DNA of 64,000 nucleotides from a virus. Both the position numbers and the translations under genes were made by a program. The stretch is taken from positions 6,648 through 70,647 of IMG/VR virus record IMGVR_UViG_3300028584_000118; one strand, written 5' to 3'. Position 1 is the first letter of the stretch. Every line of letters begins with the position of its first letter. Below are positions 7,852-54,218 of this stretch, in pieces. The notes beneath the pieces are model-generated. The model had not been told where the DNA came from, did no database searches, and worked only from the letters and a program-made list of their open reading frames with translations.

Positions 7852-7882
7852 AGAGCCCTCATAAAGAGGGCTCTTCTTTTTT
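7852..7882. terminator. Terminator at convergence of middle and late units
   Basis: AGAGCCCTC-ATAAA-GAGGGCTCT followed by TCTTTTTT. Confidence 0.8.
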
Positions 7883-10800
7883 ATTTAATTAACTTAGCCA
7901 TACTATCTAGAACCAATGTGTCATCCCATACAGTAAAGATCTGACCTGCTCCCATACGGAAAGGATTATTACCAATATGAGCCAAGAAAGAAGAATCAGT
8001 TACTAAAGGCAATGAACTATAGAAATGATTCAAAGCCACTAATCCTAACATCTGCAATGGGTGTTCTTTAGTTGTCTCTAACAATACTCGTTGAATACGG
8101 AAGAAGTATTTAATGAATGGAATGAAACCCATATCATCCATAAACTGAACTTTCTTATCCATCGGTACATCGTAGTTAATGAAAGCTTCACTCACTTTAT
8201 GTACAGCATCCTTCTCAAGCATAGGATTCTTAGCACGCTTAGTTAAGTGTTCAAACAAAACATAACGAGCAACAAAATCTGACATTTGAGTAGTCTTGCT
8301 CAAAGCTTTATATAACTTAGAGTTCCTAGTAACCAATACCGTATTAGCTACATCACGTACTGTTGGATTCACTCTATTTACATACCCCTCTACCTTCTTA
8401 GAGAAATTACTCTTATAAGAGTACTTATCATCTATCTCAGACAAGTCTTCAACAATTGAAGGACGTAAACCAAAATCAATTAATTTCTTAATTGGGCTAC
8501 GGTTAATAGCATCTTCCAATTGAACAATACGTTGTTCCTTCCTAGCAGCATCTCCCCTAATAAATCCCAAATCTCTTTCTAACTTGAGATCAAACAACTC
8601 AGTAGAGTTAGCATCCCATTGACGATATGCCTTAATAGCTACATGATGGTTTTTCATCAATTCACTTAAAGGAACACCATTCGCTTTTAGCAAAGAAATA
8701 TTACTGATGATGTTACCCAACATAACAGTACCGGTACGAATAACAACCACATCCTTAACCAGGGAAACAACTTCTTCCCAACCACGTTGACCACGACGAG
8801 TAACAATGTAGGCCATCTTACGACCATACTCTTCAGCTTCATCAATAAACATACCTTTAGAATGAATAGCGTATGTAGTAAGCATATGCTCTACAACCCA
8901 TTTGAATGCTGTCTCTGCATGGTTTAATGTGTTTGTGTCCTTTTCCCAAATACCACTCAAAGAATACTTACGGAAACCAAACAAAGGTAATACATATTTC
9001 TTACGAACCCAGATACCTTTATTGCTGCCTGTAGCATTACGAATATCTTCCTTCATTGCATAAGGTAACAATCTCCAAATTTCTTGCAGTTCTTTATCTG
9101 AACTCGTATTAGAGATAAAAATAAAATGATCTTGATTGGTTACATAGTTCTCTTTGTAATCCAAAGCTAATGCATCCACGATCACTTTATTTTGTTCTTT
9201 AGCTGTATCCTTACCAAAGGAAGTAGCAGCCATAGTACCCATCACTTGATCAATACGATTATCACGTTCCAAGATTGAATCACGTAATTGATGTGACATT
9301 TCATAACGCCAGTTAACTACTTCCATATTAGGATTCAATAATGGAATAAGGTAGTTACCTTTTTCTTTTCTTGGGTCCCATTGTAATGAAGCAGGAGAAT
9401 ACATCTGAGCCAATAATTTACGCTTAGTATTATTCACTGAAGCCAAATCAGAAGCATTTAATATACCTTCATCCATATTCAAATTACGGTTACTACCAAT
9501 AGCATTAGTACCTTTAGATTTATTAGAATCTAATTGGATTGCTCCGGATACATAAGGCATTGGTGCACCATCTTTTAATACATAGATCTGCTTCTTATCT
9601 GATGATGGATCAGCACTATCTATAAACACACCTGAATGCTGTTCGTAGTCTTGCTTAATTAATTCTTTACCTTCAGTAAGAGTAGTTACTTTAAAAGAAG
9701 TATGTGGATTAATAATCTCTGGCAAGTAACCCTTTACCATGAGCTCAGGTGAATCACTAAACAATCTTTCTTTGGCTTCAATATTCAATTTATGATGCAA
9801 AGATAAGAGCTCTGCAAAACCATTACCATTAGTACGTGAGTTTTCTTTATTAACTAAAGTACTCAAATACTTGCTCTTGTTTTGTCCCATGTAATCGAAT
9901 GCATACAATGTAACAAGCTGATCAATTATCTTCTCTGCTTGTTTTTGTTTTGCTTCTTCCATTGGTGTAGTAGTAGATAAGGCTTCTTTAGAAATAACTA
10001 AAGCATTCTTTAATTGCCCAGCTTCTAAAGCAGACTTACCGCTGATCATGTGAAAACCTAATCCTTTACTTTGTTTAATAAAGAAGAAGGCTCTCTTACC
10101 AAAAGCTTTAATGAGTTGTTTCTCTAAAGACTTAATCTCGCCTGTGCGATAAGAATCATCAGATAACAAGTTACTCAAATCAGCCATAGAATAATTATCA
10201 AGTAAGGTATAAGCACCTGTACGTAACAAACCAGATGTAACTACTCTATGATCTTCATCAGATAAGTAAGAACCATTATCTAAGAAGCCACCAAGTACTG
10301 CTTTACCTAAGCCATTCGCTATGTGTTCACGTTCAGCATTCAATGCAGTAGCGTTACGAACCATTGCAGATACTCGTGGGCCATAACCACGTACATCATT
10401 CATCATGTTCATTAACATACTGTGCTTGCTTTTATCAAACTCATTCCTTGCTTTGGTAAACAAATCCAAAGTATCAGGAATACGATCTTCAAGAAAGATA
10501 CGAGCAATAGCACCAACACCTTGAACAGTACCAAACTTATTATTACGAATGAAGTGGGACTTCAATAATTTACTTATTGAGGCTTTCAATACACTCACAA
10601 TCTTTTGTCCAGCTACATCTAAAGGCTCACCTACTTTAGCATTAGCACGTTGAATTAATGTGTTCTTCTTTCTGGCTTCGATCTCTACTAAACGATTAGT
10701 TAATACCATAATCTTTTCATTGATCTGTAAGTTACCAGTAGTTCTAGTAGCTAAGCCTGAATACAAATTAAGAATGAATTCAAAGATATTAGATAACGTT

Positions 10801-13800
10801 GTATTGATATCTTTACCTATCAATGATTTACGTACTGCACGTTGAGCAGGAATACTTAAAGCATCAAAGATCTTCTTGTTACCTAAACCAAGAGCAACAA
10901 ACGTAGCCAGGTAATCTGATTTACCATTTTGGTTTAGCTTTGCATTAAACATTAAATCATAAAGATGAGTAGCTTCTTGTTGTTCCATTATTGAAGCAGT
11001 AACCCAATCACCGGTAACAAAGTCTTTAGGACTTAATTTGTTCTTAGCAAAGTTGTGTAACTTAATAAGTTCTTGCATAGCAGCAGACACTGTAGCTTCC
11101 GGAGAAGATACTGCATCTTGCATAACAGCCTCTATCTGTTGAGCTACGAATCTTTCTTGCTCAGACATAATTAAATTAGCTGCACCAATCTTAGAAGCTA
11201 ATGGAGCCTGTCCTGTAGCCATTGATTTATTCCATACATCCAATGGAGTTACAGTCTGGTTATTCATATCTGCTTCAGAGAGACTACCAAATGGGCCTCT
11301 GAGAGCATGGACGATTCCAGCCAATAAACTCCGCATATGAAAGTCAAAAGCTCCTGTAGCACCGTTATGAGCCTTACCCAAAGCATCATAGATATCCTGA
11401 GTTGTATAGCTCATGATATTTCTTTGATTTTGCTTAGCCATAGCTAAGGTAATCTGTTCTGCTTTAGTTAAAGAACTTTCAGCTACTTCAGTCAAACCAA
11501 CAAAGTTAATAATCACAGCCTCTAATGCGTTGTTCTTGGTTTGGTTTTCTGGAGTAGTTATACCAAAGAAGTAAATTTTAATTACATCTAAGAATTCTCT
11601 CAGTGCACTAGTTATGCTGCCTTTATTAGAAGAAGCAAAGGTAATAGTTTTCAAGTAATCTCTGAACTCTGTATTAGTTAAACCCCATGACAGCAACTCA
11701 TCTACACTTTCTAATGCAGCATCAAACTTAGAGTCAGGTTTAGAAGCCAATAACTTAGTACGTAACTTTTCTAATTCATCTACGAATTGACTAGCTTTAC
11801 TATTGTCATTGGTTTTAGCATCTCTGATTGTAGTAGCTAATGCAGCATGTAAAAGTTCATGCACAATTACCTCTACTGATGTACCTGAAGTAACATCAAT
11901 ATAAATAGTAGGATTGCCTTCTGCATCAATATGAAACCAACCATTAACAGGGTAATCTGGTCGACTAGCAATCACATCAGATTCTGTTACAGCAACCAGT
12001 TTAAGATTCTCTGGTAACAAATCTTGTATGCCTGAATAAACACTATTAAGATCCCAAGTCATTAAAGAATTAAAGTCGATGTAATCTAGAGTAGGTTTCA
12101 AACCTAATTTAATAGCATCAACTAAATCAGTTTGTTGTTCACCTAAAGTAGCAAAGTTAACTTCTGGTTTAGGAGCTGCTTGTACTTCTGTACCCATAAA
12201 AGGATTACCAGTTAAGTACTCTATAGCAGAACGTACTCTTTCTAATCTTGATTTATTCAAACCAACTTTTGAAATCTTTTCTTTTTCCTTTGCACGGAAC
12301 TCATCACTAACGACGTGTTGGCCTCCTTCCATTGGATATTGATCCACATATCCTAATGTAGATAAGTACTCATGCTTAGTTTGTTCACCAGATATAAGAG
12401 TCACATACAAAGCTTCAAATGTTTCTTGAAGATTCTTTATAGTACTCTTTGAATACAGGTTCTTAATATTTTCTCTGGCTTTAGGTGTCAAAGATTCTAA
12501 GTATTGATCTACTTGATCAGGAGCAGAATAGAGCTCACCAGCTAAAGTAAGAATACTTTTCTCAAGTACATTAAACACTTCAACGATCGGTGAATAATCA
12601 GCAATCAATTCAGCAGTATGCTTATTGATTTCTTTTGCTGTGTTCATAGCATCAGGAACACCAACTAAGATTTCATCATATACGTGATGAGCTTCTACAT
12701 TATTAGCTACTGTCTCCATCATGATAGAAGATTCTAATGAGTGAACCAAAGCAGATAACGTGTAAGCACCTGGAGCCACTACAGTAGTACCTTCACTAGC
12801 TACACTGTACTTTTCTCCATTTACGATTACATTGTTCTTATAAATTGGATTGGTGCTAATACCCATACCTCCTTTACCTAAGAAGATACCTGCTTTCAGG
12901 TTGTTCTCCATTTTAGATAAAGGTGAGTGAGCTACTGGTCTAGCAGCAGCAACCATCTTCTCAATCTTCTTAGTTTGTTCAATAGTCAAATCATGCAAGG
13001 GTACTCTACGTGAAACGCCTTTATCATTTACCTTGGTTTCAAAAGCGATCGAACCATTATCCATACCATCTTGGATAAGCTTTTCTTTTTTCATACCAAG
13101 CATAAACTCATAAATGTTATGAGCTAAGTCTGCAGCTTTAGTTAAGTCATTACGCATGACTATGTAATTCTCAAACTCAGAAGAGAAGGTTTGACCCATC
13201 TTCTCACCCATAGTAATACCAACACTAAAACGAATATGTTGTTTCTGTACTTTGGATAAAGGGGTATTCAACAATTCTTCCATACTCATGTAAGGAAGTT
13301 TGTATGTACTAAAATCACTACCAGAAGAGAATTCAATCAAGTCATTGATAGAATCAATCAAAGATTTACTATCCGGCATAGCTACATCTGGGTTCTCTTT
13401 CTTTGCTTTGTAATACTCAGTCATTTTCTTCTCAAGAAATTTATTGTATGAACCAATAAATTCTTCAGAAGTTTTCTGAACTAAGCTGTAAATACTAGAA
13501 CCAAATTTAAAAGCTGTTGACGGTGTCTTAGGTAAACTACGCCCTGCTTTAGTGATCTCACCTTTTAATAATAACGGCCCATTTACATATTCAAAACTCT
13601 TGATCAGTTTTAAATAACGAGCAGAAGAACTATCAAATCTATCATCCAACTCAAAGAATTTCTTTGGGCGCTTCATTAAGTTACGAAGCATCATACTTGT
13701 CAAATGCTGATACTGATCATTGTTACCAGGATTAGCATACTCAACAAAGTTCTTAGGCCCATTGAGAATATTACGATAGAAGCCTGTACGTGCACCTACT

Positions 13801-16800
13801 CCCCCAATATCAGCAGTTCCATAAGATACGTTAGTCAAACCAGTAGCACTAACTTTACCGTCAATACCTACTGTGTGATAAATATCAATGTTAATAGGTT
13901 GATCTGGATTTGCTTCTAAACGAATCCAACCTTCAACTACTGAAGCCAGAGTATCTAATGCACGTAAGCTAATCATGCCATCTTCACCAGTAGCAATATT
14001 AACTACAGCATCAATATTCTCTTGAGTATCAAAGAGCTTACTATCCTCTACAGTCTTAGGATAATTGAATCTACGGATAAGATTAACTGCTTTACGTAAA
14101 CCTTCTTTTTGTTGAATAGCAGTCTCTAACTTACTAACAACATCTTGTGAGTAAGTAGTATCAGGATTGAAGCCAAGGTAAGTACCTAAGCTAGTCATCA
14201 ATACGCGATAGCTTTCTGTATCTTTAAGATCAAGAGCCATTTTCCAACTTGGACGATAAAACACTGAACGATGAATCTTACTTGTAGTCATGTTCAATGA
14301 ACGGGTCTTACTACCAACCCTACCGGATCTTTGTACAGAATTTAATGTATAGAATTCTTTCTCAGTAGGATGAGTTTGTTCATCACCTAAGTTAAACATT
14401 TCATACATCAATTCGTATTCACGTATTAAACCTTCATTAGCTGTCTCTACAGATTTAATATTATCTGTAGCAACCACATCTATATCAAAGTCTTTACCAC
14501 CAGCAATACGAATAATTGCATCTTTACCTAAAGCATCCATCAGATTGAACATAGAAGGAATAACTTTATTAGGGACCTTAGCCTGCTTATCAGAAACCTC
14601 TGTAGTAAGCTTAGCTACTTCCTGTGTAGTATTTTGAGTGTATTTTTGTGTGAAGCTCAGAGGCTCTATAGAGGCCATCAAAACAGATGTTTCTGCTTTA
14701 AATGTCTTCTCTAAGATACCTTTAGAACCGGCAACACTATCACGAATAAGTTTTGCATCTGCATTTAACTTACCCTCTGAATCTTTAGCTAAGTAGATGA
14801 CCTTGGTATATTCAAGAGAATCAATATCTATTTTCTTTTCACCACGAGTAAGTACACCTTCCTTAACAAGCATGTCAAGCATGTACACACCTAAGCTTGT
14901 TTTCAACTTAGGTAAGATGTTTGCGGGTACACGATCGTCTACATTCTTTAAGCCAAGTAAATCAGCAGCCATTCTACCTAACTCATTTATAGCTACTGTT
15001 TCTGTAGCCATGATTGTTCTGAAGTCACTAAGATCTTCATCAGACAATTCATAGATGTCAGATAATCTAACATGGAACATATCCTTAAGTTCTTCGTCAG
15101 TACGGAACTCAGGATAATTAGCATAGTTACCTACAAACATATAGGCAGCAACAGCCATACCGTCAACCAAGTTTTGATCAACAGTACTGTCTTCTTTAAT
15201 CAATTGATTAAATAAATTGTTTAGACTAGCTAAGCCTTCTAAGTTTTGTTTCTTAATACTCTTAGTCAATGTGTTAGACCATACTTTAATGTTGTCTCTT
15301 AAAGTATCTAAAGCATAGTTCTCTTTTTCACTTAACTCTTCTGTACCTGTAAATTCTTTTATATCTTCATTAGTATTCCATGAATTAAAGAAGTCTTTAA
15401 CAGCTACTAAAGGACGCCCATTAACTGCTTGCTTAATGTAAGCAGCTACTACATTCCCAGAATCAAAGATCTGTTGAATAGTTTTATCTGCATACTGTTC
15501 CGAAGCCAATACAGAAAGCTTACCTGATTCTTTAGATACCTCTTTCTGTTTGGTTTCTTCTTCAGCTATTTGTTCATCTGTCTTTGTGAATGCAGGAGCT
15601 TCTTTAGTTTCTACTACATCGTTTTGTTTTGGTTGTTGTTCTGTTCCTTGCGCTTCTGTTTGCTTGGCTTCAGTGGTTTGATTACTTTGCGTTTCATTTA
15701 CTGCTCCTTTATCAGATTTAGTTTTGGTTTGTGCTACAGGGAAAAATACATTCAATGCTGCATAAGATTCTTTTGTTGCTGCTTGTATTGCATTAACTTC
15801 TGCAGTTACAGCAGCAAATAATTTATCTGTGTTACCAGGGACAATATTTAATCCCTTTGCTTCTTTCAACTTATCTTTATCTAACTTCTCAGTTACTACA
15901 TTCCACATACCAGAAGCATCTTTAATAATCTGTCCACCACCATTGTTTAATGCAGTGAGCATTGCACGCTTCTTACTTGTATGTCCTTTAGCAAATGTGT
16001 TTAATTGAGAATATAACTTCTCTGCTTTAGCTTGATCATTAGATTCAAATGCAGAAGCAAAGTCTCTACGATACTGATCTAAACCAATAAAACCTTTACC
16101 ACCGGCAAAGATATCTTTAGCTACCTCAGAGATATTCTTAGCATTAGTTTCTTGCTCTACTGCTTTCTGATGTAAAGCAAAGTATTCACGTTGTTCTTGT
16201 GTAGAGCCATTGGCCTTATTACTAGTTAATGAAGCGATTTGATCTGCATTCATATTCCCAGTATTAGCCATAGCAAGTGTAATTGTCTTATTTACTTTTG
16301 CTTGGTTTGAAGCTACTACTTCCTTATTAGAAATATCTACAGGTGCAGATACCTCTTCAATTAAAGAAGATAATTGTTCTGGTTTAGCTTGTGAGTAAAC
16401 AGTAGATAACTCTGTACGTTTAGTATCGAGATACTCTAATTGTTTAGCGGTTTCATTTAAAGCAGCCTTACGTACTTTAGGATTAGCATAAGGTTGCATA
16501 TCAATGTTGAATTGCAACTCATCATTTTCCTTTTGAATGGCATCACGATCAGAAGTGAATTCATCAATAGTAGTTTGAGTCTTTGCTTGAGCTATAGCTT
16601 CATTGTATTGAGTAATAGTGTCTGCATTAGCAGCAATAACTTCTTTATTAGTATTAATTGTTTCCTGATCATACAAAGGAATTTCTTTTTGAAGTTTCTC
16701 TTGTTTGGTTTTTAATTCAGCAGTAACAGCATCTAATTGTTCAAAGGTAGCTGCCTTTTCTTCTTGGCTTACTTCTGAGTTAATAGCCTTATTCAAAGCA

Positions 16801-18083
16801 ACATCCACAATGCGGTGAGGAGCGTATGTAGGAGACTTTGGATCAGTGATGACGGAAGTATCACCTGAACTAATTGCGCTTGCTACAGCGTCATCTGTGG
16901 CTGTACGTTTAGCTGCTTTATCAGCAAGCTTAGCAGCACCTTCAACTGAAGTTTGAATAGCTTTACCACCTCCGGATAAACCACCACCAGAAGCTCCACC
17001 GATTACAGCAGATTTATAGATGTCTTCACCAGTAGTAGGTTCACCTTTAATCTGCCCTTCCATATAGGTTTGGTAACCTTCAGTAGCAGCTTCTTCTGCA
17101 AAGCCTAAACCAGTAGCTTTACCAATAGAAGTAAGAGCTCCTTTACTAGTAGCAGCTTTGGTTGCTTTACCGATAGCAGCTAATTGACCTACTTCACCAA
17201 GTTGCTCCGCTAAAGCCAATGAACCTGCTTGTAAGGCCATCTTATTACGTTCAGCATCAGAAGGTAATGCACCGTTATTACGGTCCATAAAGTTCTGAAC
17301 ACCTTTACGATATTCTTCAGCAGCGTAACCAATGTTAGAAGCAGCTAGTAAACCTTTGCCGGCATACTTAATACTACCTCCAAGTAATTGAGGTAAGTTC
17401 TCTGCAATGTATTCTGAGGTTGCTTTAGGATTGGATAAGATCGAACCACCAGCATGATAGATAAGCTTACCTATACCAGTGGCATAGTCACCTTTATCAA
17501 AACTAGCTGAAGCATCTTTATAACCAGAAGACAAATCTAAATTTAATTGGTTTCGATCGGTATTGTTAACGATGCTGGAGATATTGAAAGTATCATCAAT
17601 CTTACCACCACGTTTAGTTACTTCAGCAGAATCCAGGTAACGAGATGCAACTGTCTTGCCCTGAGCATCAGGAGTAGTCAGTCGTTTAATATCTTCAGGT
17701 GTTTGTTCGTTCTTTAAGAATCGAGCTACAGCAGCTTTATCCTCATCTGTGATATTCGATTCGTTTAAAGCATTAATGATAGGGCCGGACAAACCAGCAA
17801 TGTTACCGATTTGACGAGAAGCTCCTGATACAAATGATGCTGCAAGATCTACAGCAGTACCTACAACAGGAGTATCTTGTACACCTAATTGAGAAGACCA
17901 AGATGAAGCATTCTGCACCTTGGCTTCTGCAACTTTAGCAATGATGGCTTCCTTGTCTCTTGCTGCTTGCATCAACCTTTCTGTTTTACTTTCCGAAACT
18001 CTATTACCTATGAAGTCTGTAGTAGCGTTTAAGTCTTGTACACGTTTCTTGTTGATGTAGTCATCAAAATTAAAGTCTGCCAT
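7881..18083 (-). CDS. Virion-encapsidated RNA polymerase (N4 gp50-like)
   Basis: 3400 aa with no Cys seen; single-subunit RNAP motifs GIDG (A), GRSLPKTPSTAFKFGSS (B), HHVYDE (C); HELLH zincin-like motif; position in late block. Confidence 0.95.
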   Translation of the reverse strand: MADFNFDDYINKKRVQDLNATTDFIGNRVSESKTERLMQAARDKEAIIAKVAEAKVQNASSWSSQLGVQDTPVVGTAVDLAASFVSGASRQIGNIAGLSGPIINALNESNITDEDKAAVARFLKNEQTPEDIKRLTTPDAQGKTVASRYLDSAEVTKRGGKIDDTFNISSIVNNTDRNQLNLDLSSGYKDASASFDKGDYATGIGKLIYHAGGSILSNPKATSEYIAENLPQLLGGSIKYAGKGLLAASNIGYAAEEYRKGVQNFMDRNNGALPSDAERNKMALQAGSLALAEQLGEVGQLAAIGKATKAATSKGALTSIGKATGLGFAEEAATEGYQTYMEGQIKGEPTTGEDIYKSAVIGGASGGGLSGGGKAIQTSVEGAAKLADKAAKRTATDDAVASAISSGDTSVITDPKSPTYAPHRIVDVALNKAINSEVSQEEKAATFEQLDAVTAELKTKQEKLQKEIPLYDQETINTNKEVIAANADTITQYNEAIAQAKTQTTIDEFTSDRDAIQKENDELQFNIDMQPYANPKVRKAALNETAKQLEYLDTKRTELSTVYSQAKPEQLSSLIEEVSAPVDISNKEVVASNQAKVNKTITLAMANTGNMNADQIASLTSNKANGSTQEQREYFALHQKAVEQETNAKNISEVAKDIFAGGKGFIGLDQYRRDFASAFESNDQAKAEKLYSQLNTFAKGHTSKKRAMLTALNNGGGQIIKDASGMWNVVTEKLDKDKLKEAKGLNIVPGNTDKLFAAVTAEVNAIQAATKESYAALNVFFPVAQTKTKSDKGAVNETQSNQTTEAKQTEAQGTEQQPKQNDVVETKEAPAFTKTDEQIAEEETKQKEVSKESGKLSVLASEQYADKTIQQIFDSGNVVAAYIKQAVNGRPLVAVKDFFNSWNTNEDIKEFTGTEELSEKENYALDTLRDNIKVWSNTLTKSIKKQNLEGLASLNNLFNQLIKEDSTVDQNLVDGMAVAAYMFVGNYANYPEFRTDEELKDMFHVRLSDIYELSDEDLSDFRTIMATETVAINELGRMAADLLGLKNVDDRVPANILPKLKTSLGVYMLDMLVKEGVLTRGEKKIDIDSLEYTKVIYLAKDSEGKLNADAKLIRDSVAGSKGILEKTFKAETSVLMASIEPLSFTQKYTQNTTQEVAKLTTEVSDKQAKVPNKVIPSMFNLMDALGKDAIIRIAGGKDFDIDVVATDNIKSVETANEGLIREYELMYEMFNLGDEQTHPTEKEFYTLNSVQRSGRVGSKTRSLNMTTSKIHRSVFYRPSWKMALDLKDTESYRVLMTSLGTYLGFNPDTTYSQDVVSKLETAIQQKEGLRKAVNLIRRFNYPKTVEDSKLFDTQENIDAVVNIATGEDGMISLRALDTLASVVEGWIRLEANPDQPINIDIYHTVGIDGKVSATGLTNVSYGTADIGGVGARTGFYRNILNGPKNFVEYANPGNNDQYQHLTSMMLRNLMKRPKKFFELDDRFDSSSARYLKLIKSFEYVNGPLLLKGEITKAGRSLPKTPSTAFKFGSSIYSLVQKTSEEFIGSYNKFLEKKMTEYYKAKKENPDVAMPDSKSLIDSINDLIEFSSGSDFSTYKLPYMSMEELLNTPLSKVQKQHIRFSVGITMGEKMGQTFSSEFENYIVMRNDLTKAADLAHNIYEFMLGMKKEKLIQDGMDNGSIAFETKVNDKGVSRRVPLHDLTIEQTKKIEKMVAAARPVAHSPLSKMENNLKAGIFLGKGGMGISTNPIYKNNVIVNGEKYSVASEGTTVVAPGAYTLSALVHSLESSIMMETVANNVEAHHVYDEILVGVPDAMNTAKEINKHTAELIADYSPIVEVFNVLEKSILTLAGELYSAPDQVDQYLESLTPKARENIKNLYSKSTIKNLQETFEALYVTLISGEQTKHEYLSTLGYVDQYPMEGGQHVVSDEFRAKEKEKISKVGLNKSRLERVRSAIEYLTGNPFMGTEVQAAPKPEVNFATLGEQQTDLVDAIKLGLKPTLDYIDFNSLMTWDLNSVYSGIQDLLPENLKLVAVTESDVIASRPDYPVNGWFHIDAEGNPTIYIDVTSGTSVEVIVHELLHAALATTIRDAKTNDNSKASQFVDELEKLRTKLLASKPDSKFDAALESVDELLSWGLTNTEFRDYLKTITFASSNKGSITSALREFLDVIKIYFFGITTPENQTKNNALEAVIINFVGLTEVAESSLTKAEQITLAMAKQNQRNIMSYTTQDIYDALGKAHNGATGAFDFHMRSLLAGIVHALRGPFGSLSEADMNNQTVTPLDVWNKSMATGQAPLASKIGAANLIMSEQERFVAQQIEAVMQDAVSSPEATVSAAMQELIKLHNFAKNKLSPKDFVTGDWVTASIMEQQEATHLYDLMFNAKLNQNGKSDYLATFVALGLGNKKIFDALSIPAQRAVRKSLIGKDINTTLSNIFEFILNLYSGLATRTTGNLQINEKIMVLTNRLVEIEARKKNTLIQRANAKVGEPLDVAGQKIVSVLKASISKLLKSHFIRNNKFGTVQGVGAIARIFLEDRIPDTLDLFTKARNEFDKSKHSMLMNMMNDVRGYGPRVSAMVRNATALNAEREHIANGLGKAVLGGFLDNGSYLSDEDHRVVTSGLLRTGAYTLLDNYSMADLSNLLSDDSYRTGEIKSLEKQLIKAFGKRAFFFIKQSKGLGFHMISGKSALEAGQLKNALVISKEALSTTTPMEEAKQKQAEKIIDQLVTLYAFDYMGQNKSKYLSTLVNKENSRTNGNGFAELLSLHHKLNIEAKERLFSDSPELMVKGYLPEIINPHTSFKVTTLTEGKELIKQDYEQHSGVFIDSADPSSDKKQIYVLKDGAPMPYVSGAIQLDSNKSKGTNAIGSNRNLNMDEGILNASDLASVNNTKRKLLAQMYSPASLQWDPRKEKGNYLIPLLNPNMEVVNWRYEMSHQLRDSILERDNRIDQVMGTMAATSFGKDTAKEQNKVIVDALALDYKENYVTNQDHFIFISNTSSDKELQEIWRLLPYAMKEDIRNATGSNKGIWVRKKYVLPLFGFRKYSLSGIWEKDTNTLNHAETAFKWVVEHMLTTYAIHSKGMFIDEAEEYGRKMAYIVTRRGQRGWEEVVSLVKDVVVIRTGTVMLGNIISNISLLKANGVPLSELMKNHHVAIKAYRQWDANSTELFDLKLERDLGFIRGDAARKEQRIVQLEDAINRSPIKKLIDFGLRPSIVEDLSEIDDKYSYKSNFSKKVEGYVNRVNPTVRDVANTVLVTRNSKLYKALSKTTQMSDFVARYVLFEHLTKRAKNPMLEKDAVHKVSEAFINYDVPMDKKVQFMDDMGFIPFIKYFFRIQRVLLETTKEHPLQMLGLVALNHFYSSLPLVTDSSFLAHIGNNPFRMGAGQIFTVWDDTLVLDSMAKLIK

Positions 18084-38376: not shown

Positions 38377-38612
38377 CCACAAATATTTATCTTTATATTG
38401 ATGGAGAGATTAGTGCTCATGAACATTATCCATTAACTATGAAGTATAGAGAAACAGGTATTCTTGCTTATCATAAACCAGCAAATAGATTTGAAGTATC
38501 TAACCGCGATAATATATTTACGCCTATAGCATCTAGAGCTTATCACGTTAAATATTCTGAGAATGCTCTAGCTGATTTCAAAACTAAATTGTTATTGATG
38601 GGAGTGATGTAA
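38373..38612 (+). CDS. Array paralogue 2/17
   Basis: Tail ALADFKTKLLLMGVM. Confidence 0.8.
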   Translation: MTTNIYLYIDGEISAHEHYPLTMKYRETGILAYHKPANRFEVSNRDNIFTPIASRAYHVKYSENALADFKTKLLLMGVM

Positions 38613-38863
38613 TGAGCACTATATTATTCTTTTGGTACAAGGGTGAATTGATAGAAAGAACTTCATTCCCTGATAATGATTCTGATATGAGAAAGGATAC
38701 TTCTTGCATTGGATATTCTGTATTAAGGAGACATTTTATTTCTCCCAAGAATACTGCGGGATATGCCTTTAATACTTTTTTTTTTCATATAGATGATGCA
38801 GATATAGATAGAGTAGTTCCTACTGAGTTCAGAACAAGACTTTTATTAATGGGGATTATATGA
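38612..38863 (+). CDS. Array paralogue 3/17
   Basis: Tail VVPTEFRTRLLLMGII. Confidence 0.8.
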   Translation: MSTILFFWYKGELIERTSFPDNDSDMRKDTSCIGYSVLRRHFISPKNTAGYAFNTFFFHIDDADIDRVVPTEFRTRLLLMGII

Positions 38864-39120
38864 AAGAAGATGAAGGATTATTCTTTTGGTTTAAAAATGA
38901 ATTAATTGTAGCTGATGATTATCTTGTTCATGGGTCAAAAATGAGAGTAGATCTTAACTGTTTTTGCTTTAATAAATATAGGAATAGCTTTGCTAGTCCA
39001 CTTCCTGATAAAGGTTTTGAATTCAATATTTTCAAAAGTATTTATGAAGATGATCCTAATGAAACCAGAAAAGTTCCTAATGAATTTAAAACTCAATTAC
39101 TACTATTAGGAGCCCTATGA
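38860..39120 (+). CDS. Array paralogue 4/17
   Basis: Tail KVPNEFKTQLLLLGAL; resembles paralogue 3 along its length. Confidence 0.8.
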   Translation: MKEDEGLFFWFKNELIVADDYLVHGSKMRVDLNCFCFNKYRNSFASPLPDKGFEFNIFKSIYEDDPNETRKVPNEFKTQLLLLGAL

Positions 39121-39377
39121 CATCTTATTTTTCAAATAGAAAAGAGCACCTACTTTACGTATGGTTTCAAGGCAAGGTCTTTAGCTATCCTTATGATGGT
39201 TTAGCTATGCATATGTATGAATGGTACATACCAGGTACATACATTATGGATGGTCAATATAGATTCTTTGGTTTAATTAAGGAACGTGATGACAAAGAAT
39301 TTGATACTGTGTTTGCACCTGATGCAGATGTTCCATCTGAATTTAAAACAGCATTATTACTCTTAGGAGTGTTATGA
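39117..39377 (+). CDS. Array paralogue 5/17
   Basis: Tail DVPSEFKTALLLLGVL. Confidence 0.8.
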   Translation: MTSYFSNRKEHLLYVWFQGKVFSYPYDGLAMHMYEWYIPGTYIMDGQYRFFGLIKERDDKEFDTVFAPDADVPSEFKTALLLLGVL

Positions 39378-39637
39378 ATACTAAAGGACCTATCTACATT
39401 ATATTTCTTGAAGATGGTACTCATAGAGTACTTACTAAAATGGAGTGGATTAGAGAAGCTAAACCAGAAAGAGAAAGAGTAGTTTTAGTCTATAACAGTG
39501 AAACTAGTTTTTATGGATCTCATTGGGTTTATTCAGATAAAGGTAAAACTAATTACGAAGATATAGATAAGAAAACTAAACACTTAGTAACTGAAGCCAT
39601 GAAAACAACTGTACTTTTATATGGGTATGAACCATGA
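39374..39637 (+). CDS. Array paralogue 6/17
   Basis: Tail VTEAMKTTVLLYGYEP. Confidence 0.75.
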   Translation: MNTKGPIYIIFLEDGTHRVLTKMEWIREAKPERERVVLVYNSETSFYGSHWVYSDKGKTNYEDIDKKTKHLVTEAMKTTVLLYGYEP

Positions 39638-39885
39638 GTAATTCTAATGAATTTGTATTCTATGTATTCCAGCCTAACGGTGATCACTTTACTAGTAATA
39701 ATGCAGAAGAGGTTTTAACTAAAAGTGTGGATAATACTTACGCAGTATATATGCATGAAAATGGCGATGCTCAATGGAATATTAGAAATGCAAAGGGATT
39801 AATAAACCCTGAGCTATTTACACCTATACCAACAAACTTAGTACCTAAGAGTATTCAAACTAAGTTTCTACTTTTAAGGATATAA
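39634..39885 (+). CDS. Array paralogue 7/17
   Basis: Tail LVPKSIQTKFLLLRI. Confidence 0.75.
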   Translation: MSNSNEFVFYVFQPNGDHFTSNNAEEVLTKSVDNTYAVYMHENGDAQWNIRNAKGLINPELFTPIPTNLVPKSIQTKFLLLRI

Positions 39886-39887
39886 GC

Positions 39888-40157
39888 ATGGAACCAAAAT
39901 ACTATGTAGTGAGTGTCAAAACAGGAGAAATAAAGGAATCTCATTTAGGTGAAATATACATAGATGGTTTTGTTTTACAAGGTGAATACGTATGTCAAGT
40001 AGCCGGAAATAAAGACTACTGTAGAACATACATAAGAACAGATGTTGAAATGAATAAAATCATAAATAATGCAGGTCAGATTATTTATCCATACGAAGAA
40101 GAACATCCAGCACAAATCCCAGATAAATTAAAAACACTCTTACTTCTTATAGGGTAA
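39888..40157 (+). CDS. Array paralogue 8/17
   Basis: Tail QIPDKLKTLLLLIG. Confidence 0.8.
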   Translation: MEPKYYVVSVKTGEIKESHLGEIYIDGFVLQGEYVCQVAGNKDYCRTYIRTDVEMNKIINNAGQIIYPYEEEHPAQIPDKLKTLLLLIG

Positions 40158-40161
40158 ACCA

Positions 40162-40419
40162 ATGGCTAATAAGTATAGATACGTTGTATGGAATCCAAAT
40201 GGAACCATTATAGAAACTGATGACGCTTTTAGAGTATTAGAGAAACCTGTATTAGGTTCTTATTGTATGACTCAGCATATTGACTCCACTGATTTATCTT
40301 ATTACTGCACTTGGTTTGTATATGAGAATAATCCTTTTCCTAGATTCAATCCTGTTGATATCTATAAGGTTCCTGCATTGATTAAAACCACTTTCCTTTT
40401 GAAAGGTATAAACATATGA
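40162..40419 (+). CDS. Array paralogue 9/17
   Basis: Tail KVPALIKTTFLLKGINI. Confidence 0.8.
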   Translation: MANKYRYVVWNPNGTIIETDDAFRVLEKPVLGSYCMTQHIDSTDLSYYCTWFVYENNPFPRFNPVDIYKVPALIKTTFLLKGINI

Positions 40420-40709
40420 ACATAAACACGAGTTTAAATGCTCTTATGCATTCTTTAAGTAGCCAACTTAATTCACATGATTCTCTTATTTATGTATGGA
40501 AAAATAATGAGATTAATCTTCTCGAAGATTTGATAGCCAAGGAAGGATTTCCTGATGATTGTTATGTAGTGGATACACGATTTGATACTTCAAAACCAGA
40601 TAGTCGTTATGGTATGTGGAAAAGCACAACCGACAAATGGGAATCGAAAGATCTGGGTGAATTTCCTACTGAATTCAGAACAGCTTTATTACTTATAGGA
40701 ATTAATTAA
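40416..40709 (+). CDS. Array paralogue 10/17
   Basis: Tail EFPTEFRTALLLIGIN. Confidence 0.8.
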   Translation: MNINTSLNALMHSLSSQLNSHDSLIYVWKNNEINLLEDLIAKEGFPDDCYVVDTRFDTSKPDSRYGMWKSTTDKWESKDLGEFPTEFRTALLLIGIN

Positions 40710-40710
40710 A

Positions 40711-40971
40711 ATGGATAAAAATGTCTGCTATGCGTATCAAAAAGATGGTCAATGGGTTTTAGAATTTAAGGATTATGGCTTACTAGTTGAAGAAAGAGAC
40801 ATGCCTAAGAAGTGTTTTAAACTTTTTAGTAATATCAAGTCTTATAAAGGCTGTGTGTACTACAAAAGAAATACTAAGTTTAAGGTTAGTAATCTTTATC
40901 TTCCTAAAGAGTTACTTACTCTTTTAATGTTAAATAACTTCATTTTAGCTACTAGAGAAAGAGGGCCTTAA
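40711..40971 (+). CDS. Array paralogue 11/17
   Basis: Tail LPKELLTLLMLNNF plus extension. Confidence 0.75.
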   Translation: MDKNVCYAYQKDGQWVLEFKDYGLLVEERDMPKKCFKLFSNIKSYKGCVYYKRNTKFKVSNLYLPKELLTLLMLNNFILATRERGP

Positions 40972-40972
40972 T

Positions 40973-41275
40973 ATGGATACTAATGCAAGGTTTTGTTATG
41001 TTCATCCCGATGTAGACCAAGATCCTGATAAACCAATAAAGTATGTTTATACATTTAGTGACGAAGTAATAATAGATGTACAATTTCCTCCATGTACATT
41101 TAGATTTTTAACTAAAGATATATTATTAGGTTCAGGAAATATTTTATATATTCGTCCGAGTACAAAAACTTTTTCTTACCTAACTAAAGATACTCCAATA
41201 CCTAAAGAAATACTTACTCAGTTACTTCTTTATGGTTTTAACGCTTCTATGGGACTTCATGACAATGGGCAATAA
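40973..41275 (+). CDS. Array paralogue 12/17
   Basis: Tail IPKEILTQLLLYGF plus extension. Confidence 0.75.
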   Translation: MDTNARFCYVHPDVDQDPDKPIKYVYTFSDEVIIDVQFPPCTFRFLTKDILLGSGNILYIRPSTKTFSYLTKDTPIPKEILTQLLLYGFNASMGLHDNGQ

Positions 41276-41564
41276 TCAAACCAATATTATGGAGTCTTAT
41301 AAGGAGTCTTGGGATACGATCGTATTCCTCCCTAACCAAGAACCTCAGTTAATAATGTGGGATCACCTGCATACCATACATATTAATGAAGGCTATACAG
41401 GATTTGTTTATGCCTATTATCCTGAAGATGCTCGCTCTCCTTGGACATCATTAACTGTTGAGCAAATTAGATCAGAGGATTCTACTTCTGGTTTTCAACT
41501 ATGTTACGCAGAGGATATTAATCCTATATTCAAAACTCAATTACTTTTACTAGGAGTCACTTAA
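41232..41564 (+). CDS. Array paralogue 13/17 (true start probably 41259-41289)
   Basis: Tail INPIFKTQLLLLGVT. Confidence 0.75.
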   Translation: MVLTLLWDFMTMGNNQTNIMESYKESWDTIVFLPNQEPQLIMWDHLHTIHINEGYTGFVYAYYPEDARSPWTSLTVEQIRSEDSTSGFQLCYAEDINPIFKTQLLLLGVT

Positions 41565-41565
41565 T

Positions 41566-41826
41566 ATGTATGACTCAGCTAATGCAGATAAAATTTACTT
41601 CTGGGTAAATGAAGAAGTAGTGAAGGTAGCTATTGATGAGAATGATGAAACAATCACAGGAGGAGAATACAGTGAGTGTCCTTATATTGATTGTAGATTT
41701 TCAGAAGATGATGTTAGAAGATATGGTATGTGGGATTGTAAAGCTAACCCATCTTGGGTTGACATACCTAAGAATAAATTACCTACTAAATTCTTAGCCT
41801 CTCTACTTCTTATGGGGATTAACTAA
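41566..41826 (+). CDS. Array paralogue 14/17
   Basis: Tail LPTKFLASLLLMGIN; shares RYGMW with paralogue 10. Confidence 0.8.
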   Translation: MYDSANADKIYFWVNEEVVKVAIDENDETITGGEYSECPYIDCRFSEDDVRRYGMWDCKANPSWVDIPKNKLPTKFLASLLLMGIN

Positions 41827-50820: not shown

Positions 50821-52923
50821 ATGCGTCACATTTTGTTTAGTGATCTTCAAGAAGTAATGCCAGTGGCTTTACTAGTTAAGGCCAGTGCATTTAATAAACA
50901 TGCATTAGAAACCAACTATATAAAATCTTTATATGATGAAGGAATAAGTGAAGACAATGTAATTGCATTTGATTTGCCTTATGATCAACATAACAAAGCT
51001 CCGGTTAAGTTTATTAAAGAGTATCTTAATTTACTTTTACCTGAGCTAAAAGACTTAAAGACTGAATACCTATTTGTAACGGATTCAGCTTACTTCAAAG
51101 TATTGACTAAAAAGACTAGTGCTGAGCCTCATTTAGGTTATGTACTTCCTTGTGCAATAGCTGGTTATGAGCATATGAAGGTTGTGCTCAGTATCAATTA
51201 TCAACAATTGGTTTTCAATCCTGTACTTCAATCCAAGCTAGATATGAGTGTATTTACTCTAGCTAATCACATGAAAGGTTTGTACAAGGTACTAGGTAAT
51301 GGGATCATTCATTCAGAATATTACCCAGATACCCTTGGATCAATCCATGCTGCATTAGATTCTCTTCACCAATACGAAGCTATCAGTTGTGATATTGAAG
51401 CCTTCAGCCTTCGTTTTAATGAGGCTGGAGTAGCTACCGTAGCATTTGCTTGGGATCAACATAATGGCTTTGCATTTGCATGTGACTATTCAGAAGTATG
51501 GACAGCCGGTTTATTCTTAAATCCTGAAGCCAAGATGAGTAATATTGATATTGCTGCGTATCATGGTTTTAATAAGGTTAATCCAGCTATACGGCAGTTA
51601 CTCAGAAACTTCTTTGAATCTTATAAGGGTAGGATACGTTGGCATAATGCACCATACGACGTTAAAGTATTCATTTATTCTTTATGGATGAAAGATGCTT
51701 TAGATACAGCAGGGATGCTGCAAGGTTTAAAAATAATGGCTAGTAAGTTCGATGATACAAAGATCATTGCTTACCTAGCTCTAAATAGCACATCAGGTAA
51801 CACACTTGGTTTAAAAGCTTTAGCTCATGAATTTGCAGGTAACTGGGCTCAAGATGAAATCAAAGATGTACGGTTAATAAAGTTAGATAAACTATTGAGA
51901 TACAACTTAGTAGATGCTTTATCGACCAACTATGTTTATGATAAATATCATCCAATAATGGTTAGTGATAACCAGGAAAAAATCTATCATGAAATGATGT
52001 TACCTAGTTTAGTCACCATCATTCAAATGGAACTTACAGGTATGCCTATGTGTGAAAATACATTGGCTACTGTAAAAGCAGAACTAGAAAAGATAGGTAA
52101 GGATTATCTGAATACAATTCAGAATCTTCCTCTTATTAATACTCTTAATTTGTTACTTCGTAACGATGCAATGGAAGCAGCAAATGCTAAGCTAAAAATC
52201 AAACAGCATCCTCTATCCAAATTTGATGAGTTAAAGTTTAATCCTAATAGTGGTAAGCAACTCCAAACATTGTTGTACAAACAAATGGGGTTACCAGTAC
52301 TGGATTTAACTGATACTAAGCAACCGGCTACAGGAGCAGATACTTTAGAGAAGTTAATAAACCATACTACCTTTCCAATGTACAAAGAATTTCTTAGTGC
52401 ATTAATTGGTTACAGTAAAGTAATGAAGATTCTTTCTACTTTTATTCCTGCTTTTGAAAAGGGAATTAAGAAGGGAGATAAAGCAATTTACTTACATGGT
52501 TCATTTAACTTAGGTGGTACGGTTTCAGGACGACTAAGTAGTTCTGACCCAAACATGCAAAACCTGCCTGCAGGTTCCTATTATGGTAAATTGATCAAAC
52601 AGATCTTTAAAGCACCAGAAGGCTGGTTGTTTGTAGGTGCAGATTTTAATTCTCTTGAGGATTACATCTCAGCACTCACTACAAAAGACCCCAACAAGCT
52701 TCGTGTTTACACCGATAAGTTTGACGGACACTGTTTACGAGCAGCTACATACTTTCCTGATCAAATGCCTGATATAACTCAGCAACTGGATTTAAAACCA
52801 GGTGAAAGAGTATTTCGTATAAAAAAAGACGACGGTTCCTTGTATTATGCAAAAGGTTCAGATATCATGCCACTTTCCGGTAAAACAGTGAAGCAAGAAT
52901 ATGATACCAATTCCAAAATATGA
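50821..52923 (+). CDS. polA: Family A DNA polymerase, N-terminal part (exonuclease through motif A)
   Basis: CDIEAF; HNAPYD; YNLVD; GTVSGRLSSSDPNMQN; GADFNSLE; DGHCLRA. Confidence 0.92.
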   Translation: MRHILFSDLQEVMPVALLVKASAFNKHALETNYIKSLYDEGISEDNVIAFDLPYDQHNKAPVKFIKEYLNLLLPELKDLKTEYLFVTDSAYFKVLTKKTSAEPHLGYVLPCAIAGYEHMKVVLSINYQQLVFNPVLQSKLDMSVFTLANHMKGLYKVLGNGIIHSEYYPDTLGSIHAALDSLHQYEAISCDIEAFSLRFNEAGVATVAFAWDQHNGFAFACDYSEVWTAGLFLNPEAKMSNIDIAAYHGFNKVNPAIRQLLRNFFESYKGRIRWHNAPYDVKVFIYSLWMKDALDTAGMLQGLKIMASKFDDTKIIAYLALNSTSGNTLGLKALAHEFAGNWAQDEIKDVRLIKLDKLLRYNLVDALSTNYVYDKYHPIMVSDNQEKIYHEMMLPSLVTIIQMELTGMPMCENTLATVKAELEKIGKDYLNTIQNLPLINTLNLLLRNDAMEAANAKLKIKQHPLSKFDELKFNPNSGKQLQTLLYKQMGLPVLDLTDTKQPATGADTLEKLINHTTFPMYKEFLSALIGYSKVMKILSTFIPAFEKGIKKGDKAIYLHGSFNLGGTVSGRLSSSDPNMQNLPAGSYYGKLIKQIFKAPEGWLFVGADFNSLEDYISALTTKDPNKLRVYTDKFDGHCLRAATYFPDQMPDITQQLDLKPGERVFRIKKDDGSLYYAKGSDIMPLSGKTVKQEYDTNSKI

Positions 52924-53482
52924 GGGCATTTACACTATCAACGATAGTGGTGAAGTATTTTCTGTTAATCGTACTGTAATAGCTAAAGATGGTAACGCTT
53001 ACCGTAAAAAGGGTAAGAAGTTAGTACCTTTTATTAATAAACAAACAGGGTATTACTATATTAGTTTATGGCGCAATAATAAAGGTAAAACATTTGCATT
53101 ACATCGTATTGTTGCTAATTTATTTGTTAGTAACCCATACAATAAGCCAGAAGTAAATCACAAGGATAGCAATAGATTAAACTGTTGTGCGAGTAATTTG
53201 GAATGGGTAACCAGTTCAGAAAATTCTACTCATGGTTATATTCATGGCTTTGCAACACAAAAACTAAGAAGAAAATTAACTGAGGATGATTATAAAGAAA
53301 TCTTCAGAAGATTTTTAATAGGTGAGAGTATGGCAGTTATTATAAAAGACTTTACAATCAGCCCAGGAAGACTGTCAGTGAATTTAAAAGCACTGACATT
53401 AAAATGGGGCAAGCATAAAGAGTACAAAGCAGAAATATATCGTCAACAAGTAAAAAGGGCTCAGATCAATGGAAACAATTGA
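52901..53482 (+). mobile_element. NUMOD4-HNH homing endonuclease inserted in polA
   Basis: IPKYEGIY.IND.GEVFS; LHRIVA..F; VNHKDSNRLN...NLEWVT..EN. Confidence 0.9.
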
Positions 53483-53588
53483 AGAAATAACACAGGCTGA
53501 ATATACAGTTGGTGTAGTGAACAGTATCGCAAAGCGATACAAGGAGCTTCGGCAAGAGAGTAAAGCACCTACTTTCTTGCTCAGGTAA
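53469..53588 (+). CDS. polA: DNA polymerase middle fragment (first half of motif B), not in ORF track
   Basis: METIEEITQAEYTVGVVNSIAKRYKELRQESKAPTFLLR then TAA; same frame as the C-terminal fragment. Confidence 0.8.
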   Translation: METIEEITQAEYTVGVVNSIAKRYKELRQESKAPTFLLR

Positions 53589-54218
53589 CTTACCTATGGT
53601 GGGACCTATCATGGAATGATGCATAACTTGGGATGGCCTGAGGATAAATCTAAGGCCATTGAAACCAATTACCATAACTTGTACAAAGTATCTGATGCTT
53701 ACGTTCAAGATCGTTTAACCCAAGCCAGTAAAGATGGATATGTTGAGGTTGCGTTTGGTTTACGTGTGCGTACACCCTTGTTAAAACAAGTAATGTATGG
53801 AAATGGAAGGATACCTTATGAAGCTGCAGCAGAAGGTAGAACAGCCGGTAATGCTTTAGGTCAGTCATATGGCTTATTGAATAATCGTGCTGCAAATGAA
53901 TTCATGGAAATGGTAAGAAACTCTAAGTATGCTTTAGATATTAAACCAGTAGCTCTAATCCATGATGCAATCTATCTTATGATTAAGGATGATATCGAAG
54001 TAGTTGAGTGGGTAAATAATAATTTAATTAAATGTATGCAATGGCAGGAGCTTCCTGAGATTCAGCATAATGAAGTTAAGTTAGGAGCCAACTTAGATAT
54101 CTATTGGCCTAATTGGGCTAATCCAATAACCCTTCCAAATAATGCTACTCCAAAGCAGATTAAAGCTCTGTGTGATGAAGCAGGCATTAAGCACAAGAAA
54201 CCAATAAATAATATGTAG
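53589..54218 (+). CDS. polA: DNA polymerase C-terminal fragment (LTYGG through motif C)
   Basis: LTYGGTYHG precedes track ATG 53616; AFGLRVRTP; EGRTAGNALGQSY; LIHDAIY. Confidence 0.88.
   Translation, partial: LTYGGTYHGMMHNLGWPEDKSKAIETNYHNLYKVSDAYVQDRLTQASKDGYVEVAFGLRVRTPLLKQVMYGNGRIPYEAAAEGRTAGNALGQSYGLLNNRAANEFMEMVRNSKYALDIKPVALIHDAIYLMIKDDIEVVEWVNNNLIKCMQWQELPEIQHNEVKLGANLDIYWPNWANPITLPNNATPKQIKALCDEAGIKHKKPINNM

Follow-up and report, generated by a model that had tools for sequence, protein, structure and literature searches.

Whether, and how, a family A DNA polymerase can be made from a gene in which nine extra bases place an in-frame stop codon inside motif B is the question raised by the polA gene in a 64-kb stretch of viral DNA (hereafter referred to as the window). 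The window is part of a 73.1-kb IMG/VR viral contig that is 99% complete. An ORF of 3400 aa (7881-18083) is a hallmark of N4-like podoviruses (Schitoviridae), and relatives of the family A polymerase are encoded by N4-like phages of Salmonella, Klebsiella, Pseudomonas, and Vibrio (57-61% identity). No second family A polymerase was found elsewhere in the genome; the split polA is the sole copy. Among cultured phages, neither near-identical DNA nor the DNA of the cassette described below or its tail (CTE) was found. TAA is the commonest stop codon of the phage. No tRNA genes were detected in the phage, which excludes a suppressor tRNA of its own. In another part of the window (38612-41826), about twelve back-to-back ORFs of 83-110 aa occur, several of which are diverged paralogues of one another (24-41% identity over ~80 aa).

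A resident HNH cassette in polA

The N-part of polA terminates in a cassette-borne tail, the CTE (Table 1). It is followed by an HNH gene, the homologues of which are each 192-193 aa in length (55-76% identity) and the ORF of which shares 23 nt with the N-part and 14 nt with the start of the C-part, in both cases out of frame. The C-part starts with ATG at 53469 and reads METIEE...RQESKAPTFLLR up to the TAA at 53586-53588, after which the same frame resumes with LTYGGTYHGMM... and continues to 54218. The first half of motif B resides in the 39-codon ORF starting at 53469. It is cassette-borne as part of HomR, which is homologous to the polymerase sequence displaced by the insertion. Relatives that carry the insertion have conserved versions of the tail, the nuclease, and the leader. 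Identical HomR sequences together with identical extra bases (in the following, the gap) precede differing polymerase backgrounds, FLLTYGG and FALTYQG (L212, L214, L215), and the 3' boundary of the element is therefore located at the gap. The initial annotation had offered the scar of a lost mobile element as one origin of the extra bases. The gap is indeed located at the 3' edge of the HNH cassette; the cassette, however, is resident and not lost.

Table 1. Features of the split polA locus, with positions given for the window.
Feature	Position	Strand	Basis or remark
polA N-part ORF, 700 aa (exonuclease, thumb, motif A DFNSLE)	50821..52923	+	Pfam DNA_pol_A, E 2.6e-31
CTE, 44 aa	52789..52920	+	Alignments; absent from intact polymerases, conserved in cassette-bearing relatives
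HNH homing-endonuclease gene, 193 aa, NUMOD4 + HNH_3	52901..53482	+	Pfam; 13 homologues
NTE of the C-part, 13 aa, METIEEITQAEYT	53469..53507	+	Cassette-specific
HomR, copy of the polymerase stretch VGVVNSIAKRYKELRQESKAPTFL	53508..53579	+	Per-codon table
AAGGAG, Shine-Dalgarno-like	53541..53546	+	Sequence only; 4 nt 5' of the stem; putative role
5' stem-loop, 12 bp (53551-62 with 53570-81), 7-nt loop	53551..53581	+	-16 kcal/mol, z -3.0
Proposed take-off codon CTC (Leu)	53580..53582	+	Relatives read CTT at the same codon
AGG TAA, proposed to be untranslated	53583..53588	+	Rare Arg codon, then stop with 3' C
Proposed landing codon CTT (Leu)	53589..53591	+	Same tRNA as CTC
Remaining polA (TYGG of motif B, motif C HDA, C-terminus)	53592..54218	+	Open, conserved

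An Rfam scan of 52400-54000 yielded zero matches at E values up to 10 and no intron-like fold. The lacking Rfam match, the tightly overlapping ORFs, and the conserved translated tails argue against a group I intron. An intein or split intein was rejected as well: with 44 aa in the tail and 13 aa in the leader both are short, and the window has a replacement at the Cys. The consensus of the CTE is ER[CV]F.I....G.....KSGD.I...G..IPVEDYY, with the Cys occurring in many relatives and Ala in the window. A CTE profile gave a weak match to the N-terminus of PDB chain 9hth_A (E 1.8e-4), the molecule name of which is 'DNA-directed DNA polymerase'; by our reading of the motif, this N-terminus is intein-like. 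The cassette tails look intein-derived, yet they are far too short for protein splicing. When IMG/VR was queried with the HNH protein or with an alignment of HNH sequences, unrelated HNH genes came up. A second HNH insertion occurs at motif A (DFNSL/EDYISALT) in L007:2277-3076, L214:1017-1868, and L217:1976-2800, and this polymerase family has several homing hot spots. Many short C-terminal ORFs (P0006, P0014, P0022, and others) carry the leaders MLEIKSTD..SIKQ.ENT or MQQ.GTLKKSTV... just before GFDGHCLRA, which appear to mark a further polA split site with conserved leaders of its own.

Extra bases in motif B of the window and its relatives

All codons that the initial annotation had quoted around 53562-53591 are present in the window exactly as claimed: AAA begins at 53562, and AAA, CTC, AGG, TAA, and CTT are all in frame of the ORF ending at 54218. 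An unbroken K-x-P-T-F-(L/A)-L-T-Y-(G/Q)-G occurs in 14 of 18 IMG/VR relatives (54-82% identity), and motif B is uninterrupted in the cultured phages phCDa and As2, too. The closest intact relatives read KAPTFLLTYGG, identical to the window minus 9 nt. Thus, deletion of the 9 nt restores the motif exactly, as had been noted. The boundary of the gap is ambiguous by 2 nt owing to the CT..CT flanks. At the proposed take-off, the A site would hold AGG followed by TAA in the window, and a stop codon immediately in relatives. AGG, a candidate slow-to-decode codon depending on the tRNA pool of the host, accounts for 2.4 per 1000 codons and 6.6% of the Arg codons. The hairpin AGGTA-ACT-TACCT, to which the initial annotation had drawn attention, does exist; its stability (-3.6 kcal/mol, z -0.42), however, does not exceed chance expectation, with 61 of 200 shuffles folding equally well.

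Gaps were collected by pattern scans, from an 80-locus IMG/VR sample, and from contigs retrieved for short C-terminal ORFs. About 20 independent relatives are gapped within the same eight codons, with gap sizes of 1, 5, 6, and 45 nt. Already among the first 18 relatives, two (L007 and L008) carry an HNH insertion and distinct 5-nt stop-containing inserts after K-A-P-T. The 5-nt class follows the pattern ACN-stop-YN and then TTY, and occurs in eight sequence variants (ACC TGA CT, ACT TGA CT, ACT TAG CT, ACC TAG CT, ACT TAA CT, ACT TAA CC, ACT TAA TT, and ACG TAG CG). In the 6-nt class, the gap comes after K-x-P and the alleles (L035, L194) read CCA TAA CTA and CCG TGA ACA, and the +1 class, represented by two diverged contigs, reads ACC TTT T and then CTN. 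The 45-nt class (L210) extends from ACC to ACC and forms a strong hairpin with a stop in the loop: at L210:2930-2990, a 12-bp GC-rich hairpin with TAA in the loop directly follows the rare codons ATA and CGG. Of all alleles, L210 is the most gene-60-like. P0028 may be another long-gap allele, and P0105, an ORF starting with MTYQG..., was rejected as a miscalled ORF with an uninterrupted motif B. In about half of the short polA fragments that are closest among public data (61 of 120), the ORF begins directly behind motif B or, in a shifted frame, directly ahead of it, and all eight short C-terminal ORFs inspected at the DNA level proved to be gapped.

The cassette lineage of the window is represented in three other assemblies (L213, L245, L246), which read TTC TTG CTT TAG CTT ACY, with a gap of 6 nt, and encode HNH proteins 58-76% identical to that of the window. 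A further relative, L248, has an unsplit polA in a 74-kb contig and reads CTT TAG CTA. As four diverged cassette relatives are gapped at the same codon, the gap is ancestral to this lineage. The window differs from the relatives of its class by three changes, but its take-off codon is still a Leu codon read by the same tRNA, a stop is still present in frame, and CTT remains as landing codon. This landing codon is invariant across the four split cassette alleles and is replaced by CTA in L248.

The exact variant CTC AGG TAA is a singleton. A pattern scan of IMG/VR for the 9-nt class gave one match, which was spurious and AT-rich, and one metagenome pattern scan with the flanks of the window gave 26 matches, all spurious. 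The phage was not found in any public sequencing run, and no RNA run is listed for it; four public runs with small shares yielded only short contigs of relatives. One of these, 328 nt in length and ~96% identical downstream, has KAPTFLLT without a break. Positions 53583-53595 (AGGTAA-C-TTACCT) form a near-perfect 13-nt palindrome, in which the extra AGGTAA and the TTACCT after it are reverse complements of each other. The window allele might be dead or wrong: the 9 nt would then be either a recent inactivating mutation in a defective genome that chanced to be assembled, or an assembly error. An insertion by template switching that created the AGGTAA/TTACCT palindrome would be one example. The solitary occurrence of the exact variant, the uninterrupted 328-nt contig, and the palindrome created by the insert would fit such an origin, but it leaves unexplained the four diverged same-cassette relatives with a stop-containing gap at the same codon. 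In addition, the three differences preserve the Leu take-off codon, the stop, and the CTT landing codon, and no damage is seen in the remainder of polA, in the HNH gene, or in the genome. We consider this explanation unlikely, and no sign was observed of the gene inactivation that had been envisaged for the insert. An assembly artefact is an unlikely source of a gap at this site, whereas the exact 9 nt are supported by one assembly and may be artefactual. The palindrome suggests that the window variant may have arisen by template switching or fold-back on a CTT-TAG-CTT ancestor.

Matched codons, upstream stem-loops, and constraint around the gaps

In every class, the landing codon can pair with the take-off tRNA, with L194 as the single exception. 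An exact match occurs in the window, the four relatives of its class, four of the 5-nt variants, both TTT-T alleles, and L210, while the others require a G-U pair at one position. The landing codons of the 5-nt variants are ACT or ACC (4), GCT or GCG (3), and ATT (1), and third positions co-vary, ACG occurring with GCG and ACY with NCY. The last bases of a random insert would match the first two of the codon in front of it in 1 of 16 cases; by our own arithmetic, such a match is seen in at least 8 of about 14 independent gap sequences. A minimal hop from CTC to CTT, as put forward in the initial annotation, is in agreement with these matched-codon gaps in relatives, but the hairpin in the gap is not borne out as its driver. 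Two other mechanisms were rejected. For the 5-nt class, a -1 frameshift on the C-run would separate K and F by two additional, variable residues, and the run itself shows no conservation, L008 having GCT CCC. Initiation at the codon after the stem is implausible, as the codons in question are ACT, GCT, ATT, ACC, and GCG.

A stem-loop is located directly upstream of the proposed take-off site (Table 1), and its 3' arm runs into the take-off codon. Compared to the window, the stem is identical in L245 and L246 and has one G-U to A-U change in L213. In L248 it differs by two double compensatory changes, one of them via an E-to-R replacement. For the window's class, the stem is only moderately beyond what the Q-E and F-L codons alone give. 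At the same position, the stem of the 5-nt class is a different one: it is GC-rich, comprises 8-12 bp, and shows double compensatory changes in 5 of 12 pairs, several through amino-acid changes; the co-varying residues are G-G-L with K-A-P, G-A-L with K-S-P, and G-S-L with K-A-P. Stems are likewise present there in L210 and in the +1 class. When the 48 nt preceding the take-off codon were folded, 16 of 18 gapped alleles gave -15 to -26 kcal/mol, and the two others, L035 and L194, gave -5 kcal/mol. L194, and to a lesser extent L035, combine a poor landing match with the lack of a stem. In 76 intact alleles the best value averaged -8.7 (sd 3.7), even when the best of 18 positions was chosen. The 48-nt fold of the window has -15.2, and the best value among the 76 intact alleles was -17.3. 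In the window's class as well as in the 5-nt class (L007, L008, L157, L208, L212), a Shine-Dalgarno-like AAGGAG precedes the stem by 3-4 nt. The AAGGAG-stem pairs occupy different positions of the protein alignment in the two classes, and their geometry looks convergent between them.

In the four split alleles of the window's class, synonymous sites are near-invariant over the 21 codons before the gap, starting from 53514, while nearly every degenerate codon beyond this block, upstream or downstream, varies. The stretch TYGGTYHGM, which follows the gaps and precedes any start codon, had a pS of 0.8 and a pN of 0 in eight gapped alleles, compared to a pN/pS of 1.9 in the +1 frame used as control. 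Some of the conservation 3' of the gap could be a legacy of the polymerase gene that was invaded; against this, the cassette lineages are old, with HNH proteins 26-76% identical to one another. In the 80-locus IMG/VR sample, polA is interrupted at the cassette site in 4 of 4 gapped and 0 of 76 intact alleles (p ~6e-7 by our own arithmetic over the 80 loci). An HNH ORF is present at the interruption in L007, L008, and L157, and L194 has an ORF resembling the HNH of L035. Several alleles depart from the complete cassette: in L216 the HNH gene has an internal stop and the gap is absent, L201 and L205 retain tail and gap and have lost the nuclease, and L248 has kept the gap with the gene unsplit. 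The same decay series has been described for MobA elements (bioRxiv 10.1101/2022.08.31.505936).

These data bear on three further explanations. The locus might be expressed without any recoding as three polypeptides, i.e., the N-part, a 39-aa peptide ending in ...KAPTFLLR, and a fragment starting from Met 53616, with LTYGGTYHG unmade. The cassette already splits the enzyme once, and the earliest in-frame ATG 3' of the gap is part of an ATG ATG at 53616, 27 nt past the stop. However, this arrangement would lose the Y-G of motif B, and LTYGGTYHG has a pN of 0 despite saturated synonymous sites. Several 5-nt alleles lack ATG, GTG, and TTG for at least 20 codons after the gap, and it would not be explained why the flanking codons match and why the stem is conserved. 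We regard this possibility as very improbable.

Equally doubtful is readthrough of the stop by a near-cognate tRNA or a host suppressor tRNA, which would lengthen the O-helix by three residues, L-R-X. The reading frame is kept across the gap in the window, in CTT-TAG-CTT, and in the 45-nt and both 6-nt alleles, and TAA-C and TAG-C are weak termination contexts in E. coli. However, the 1-nt and 5-nt classes require a change of frame, and readthrough therefore cannot be the solution shared by all classes. Moreover, 2, 3, or 15 added residues would break the invariant F-Y spacing of K-x3-F-x3-Y-G, and the phage itself is without tRNA genes.

It is likewise very improbable that the gap is removed at the RNA level, by a micro-intron or a stem-guided cut-and-ligate reaction, or that the endonuclease makes use of the stem and the invariant nucleotides in the DNA: the strong nucleotide-level constraint and the conserved stem beside the gap would suit either, RNA and DNA function being indistinguishable by sequence alone, but the region is devoid of an Rfam match and an intron-like fold, we know of no such mRNA editing in phages, and excision predicts neither flanking codons read by one tRNA nor co-variation of third positions.

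A proposed ribosomal hop and its relation to known systems

Taken together, we infer that the 9 nt are fairly probably bypassed in a programmed manner, with peptidyl-tRNA-Leu hopping +9 from CUC to CUU, within a cassette organized like that of T4 mobA/gene 60. An HNH cassette has invaded polA of an N4-like phage, resulting in an N-part with CTE and a C-part with NTE and HomR. According to the model, the ribosome would decode ...K-A-P-T-F-L-L(CUC) and pause with the rare AGG in the A site and UAA-C next. The peptidyl-tRNA-Leu would unpair from CUC, the mRNA would move by 9 nt, and re-pairing would occur at CUU. Decoding would then restart at ACC, giving rise to KAPTFLLTYGG, so that the hop product would carry the junction peptide ...APTFLLTYGGTYHG..., alternatively written as ...APTFLLTYGGTYHGMMHNLGWPEDK. 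The 12-bp stem, with its 3' arm inside the ribosome, could re-form only upon forward movement of the mRNA and would thus probably drive the slide. The AGGU, 2 nt ahead of the landing codon, may assist landing through pairing to the anti-SD; an SD-like element in the gap of gene 60 has been proposed to aid landing (bioRxiv 10.1101/2022.08.31.505936). The gap would disrupt the endonuclease target in the motif B DNA and protect the carrier genome, and it probably exists because it breaks the nuclease target in this way, similar to the protection conferred by the 50-nt gap in the T4 mobA/gene 60 cassette. Such an immunity role is suggested by the analogy to T4, the co-occurrence of gap and cassette, and the loss of the gap in L216 along with a decayed HNH gene.

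The window allele may be a weakened or decayed derivative of CTT-TAG-CTT that hops less well, because a sense codon, AGG, follows the take-off codon; normal decoding of AGG leads to termination at TAA. Simple stop-hops in E. coli, as Weiss et al. reportedly found in 1987, are inefficient (~1-2%). For the family as a whole, we judge it an even chance that HNH cassettes of N4-like phages have repeatedly installed 1- to 45-nt hop sites in the O-helix codons of polA, with matched codons, a stop, a stem-loop abutting the take-off codon, and AAGGAG just upstream as the shared parts.

The closest parallel is the MobA element that divides the T4 topoisomerase into genes 39 and 60 (Manning & Atkins, bioRxiv 10.1101/2022.08.31.505936; for MobA and the gene 60 bypass see also Bonocora et al. 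2011, as cited therein). In both systems, an essential replication gene is split by an HNH gene whose ORF runs into either half out of frame. Both elements also bring along a tail for the C-terminus of the first half, a leader for the N-terminus of the second, and a HomR stretch, and decay forms occur in which either the nuclease is lost and the gap kept or the nuclease is decayed and the gap lost. Constraint at the nucleotide level has been reported for the gene 60 cassette as well. In contrast, the target is a topoisomerase there and motif B of polA here, and gaps are 20-50 nt in MobA/gene 60 (50 nt in T4) compared to 1-9 nt and one of 45 nt in polA. Unlike T4 gene 60, the window is devoid of a significant take-off hairpin in the gap, whereas L210 has one, and unlike the T4 MobA gap, the polA gaps represent many independent sequences at slightly different codons. 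A BLASTP comparison of the HNH protein with T4 60.1, the mobA remnant, gave an E value of 0.023 over 15 residues and, thus, no significant similarity; as the T4 gene is decayed, this comparison is uninformative as to homology. Since the target differs and the nuclease shows no specific similarity, the polA cassette is an analogue and not a member of the MobA elements.

The codons of L248 are the same as those of a non-programmed E. coli hop over a stop, CUU-UAG-CUA (Weiss et al. 1987, in the reference list of bioRxiv 10.1101/2022.08.31.505936), and CTT TAG CTT in L213, L245, and L246 as well as CTC AGG TAA CTT in the window are comparable. The E. coli hops reportedly were synthetic or low-level events, whereas the polA site is located in an essential catalytic motif, is conserved across diverged phages, and has an upstream stem. 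Two other genes are likewise split but have no coding gap: in nrdA/mobE of Aeromonas phage Aeh1, an essential gene is split by a free-standing homing endonuclease with cassette-borne tails, and polA of Vibrio phage JA-1 (PMC3670811) is split by an HNH gene as well, but is cut at motif A with motif B intact. The +1 frameshift of RF2 (prfB) at CUU UGA C resembles the polA site in the P-site Leu CUU, the stop followed by C, and the nearby SD-like element. Its +1 slip is similar to what the TTT-T alleles need, while the window needs +9, and the stimulator in the window appears to be the upstream stem instead.

Our literature search returned no paper on bypass in phage polA, and the topoisomerase bypass cassette has been termed 'unique' (bioRxiv 10.1101/2022.08.31.505936). 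Efficient programmed bypassing in bacteria and phages essentially comprises one known case, T4 gene 60 and its relatives. The gaps in polA follow the same logic in another essential gene, with a graded series of 1, 5, 6, 9, and 45 nt and what look like convergent upstream stems. They provide a set of natural variants for testing take-off triggers, slide distance, and the re-forming upstream hairpin as driver. For annotation, the lesson is that gapped polA genes get split or truncated by pipelines. If the proposed hop is true, these phages would harbor a second and far more diverse natural system of programmed bypass after T4 gene 60, and short stop-hops would be an efficient and evolvable means by which selfish elements immunize their carriers.
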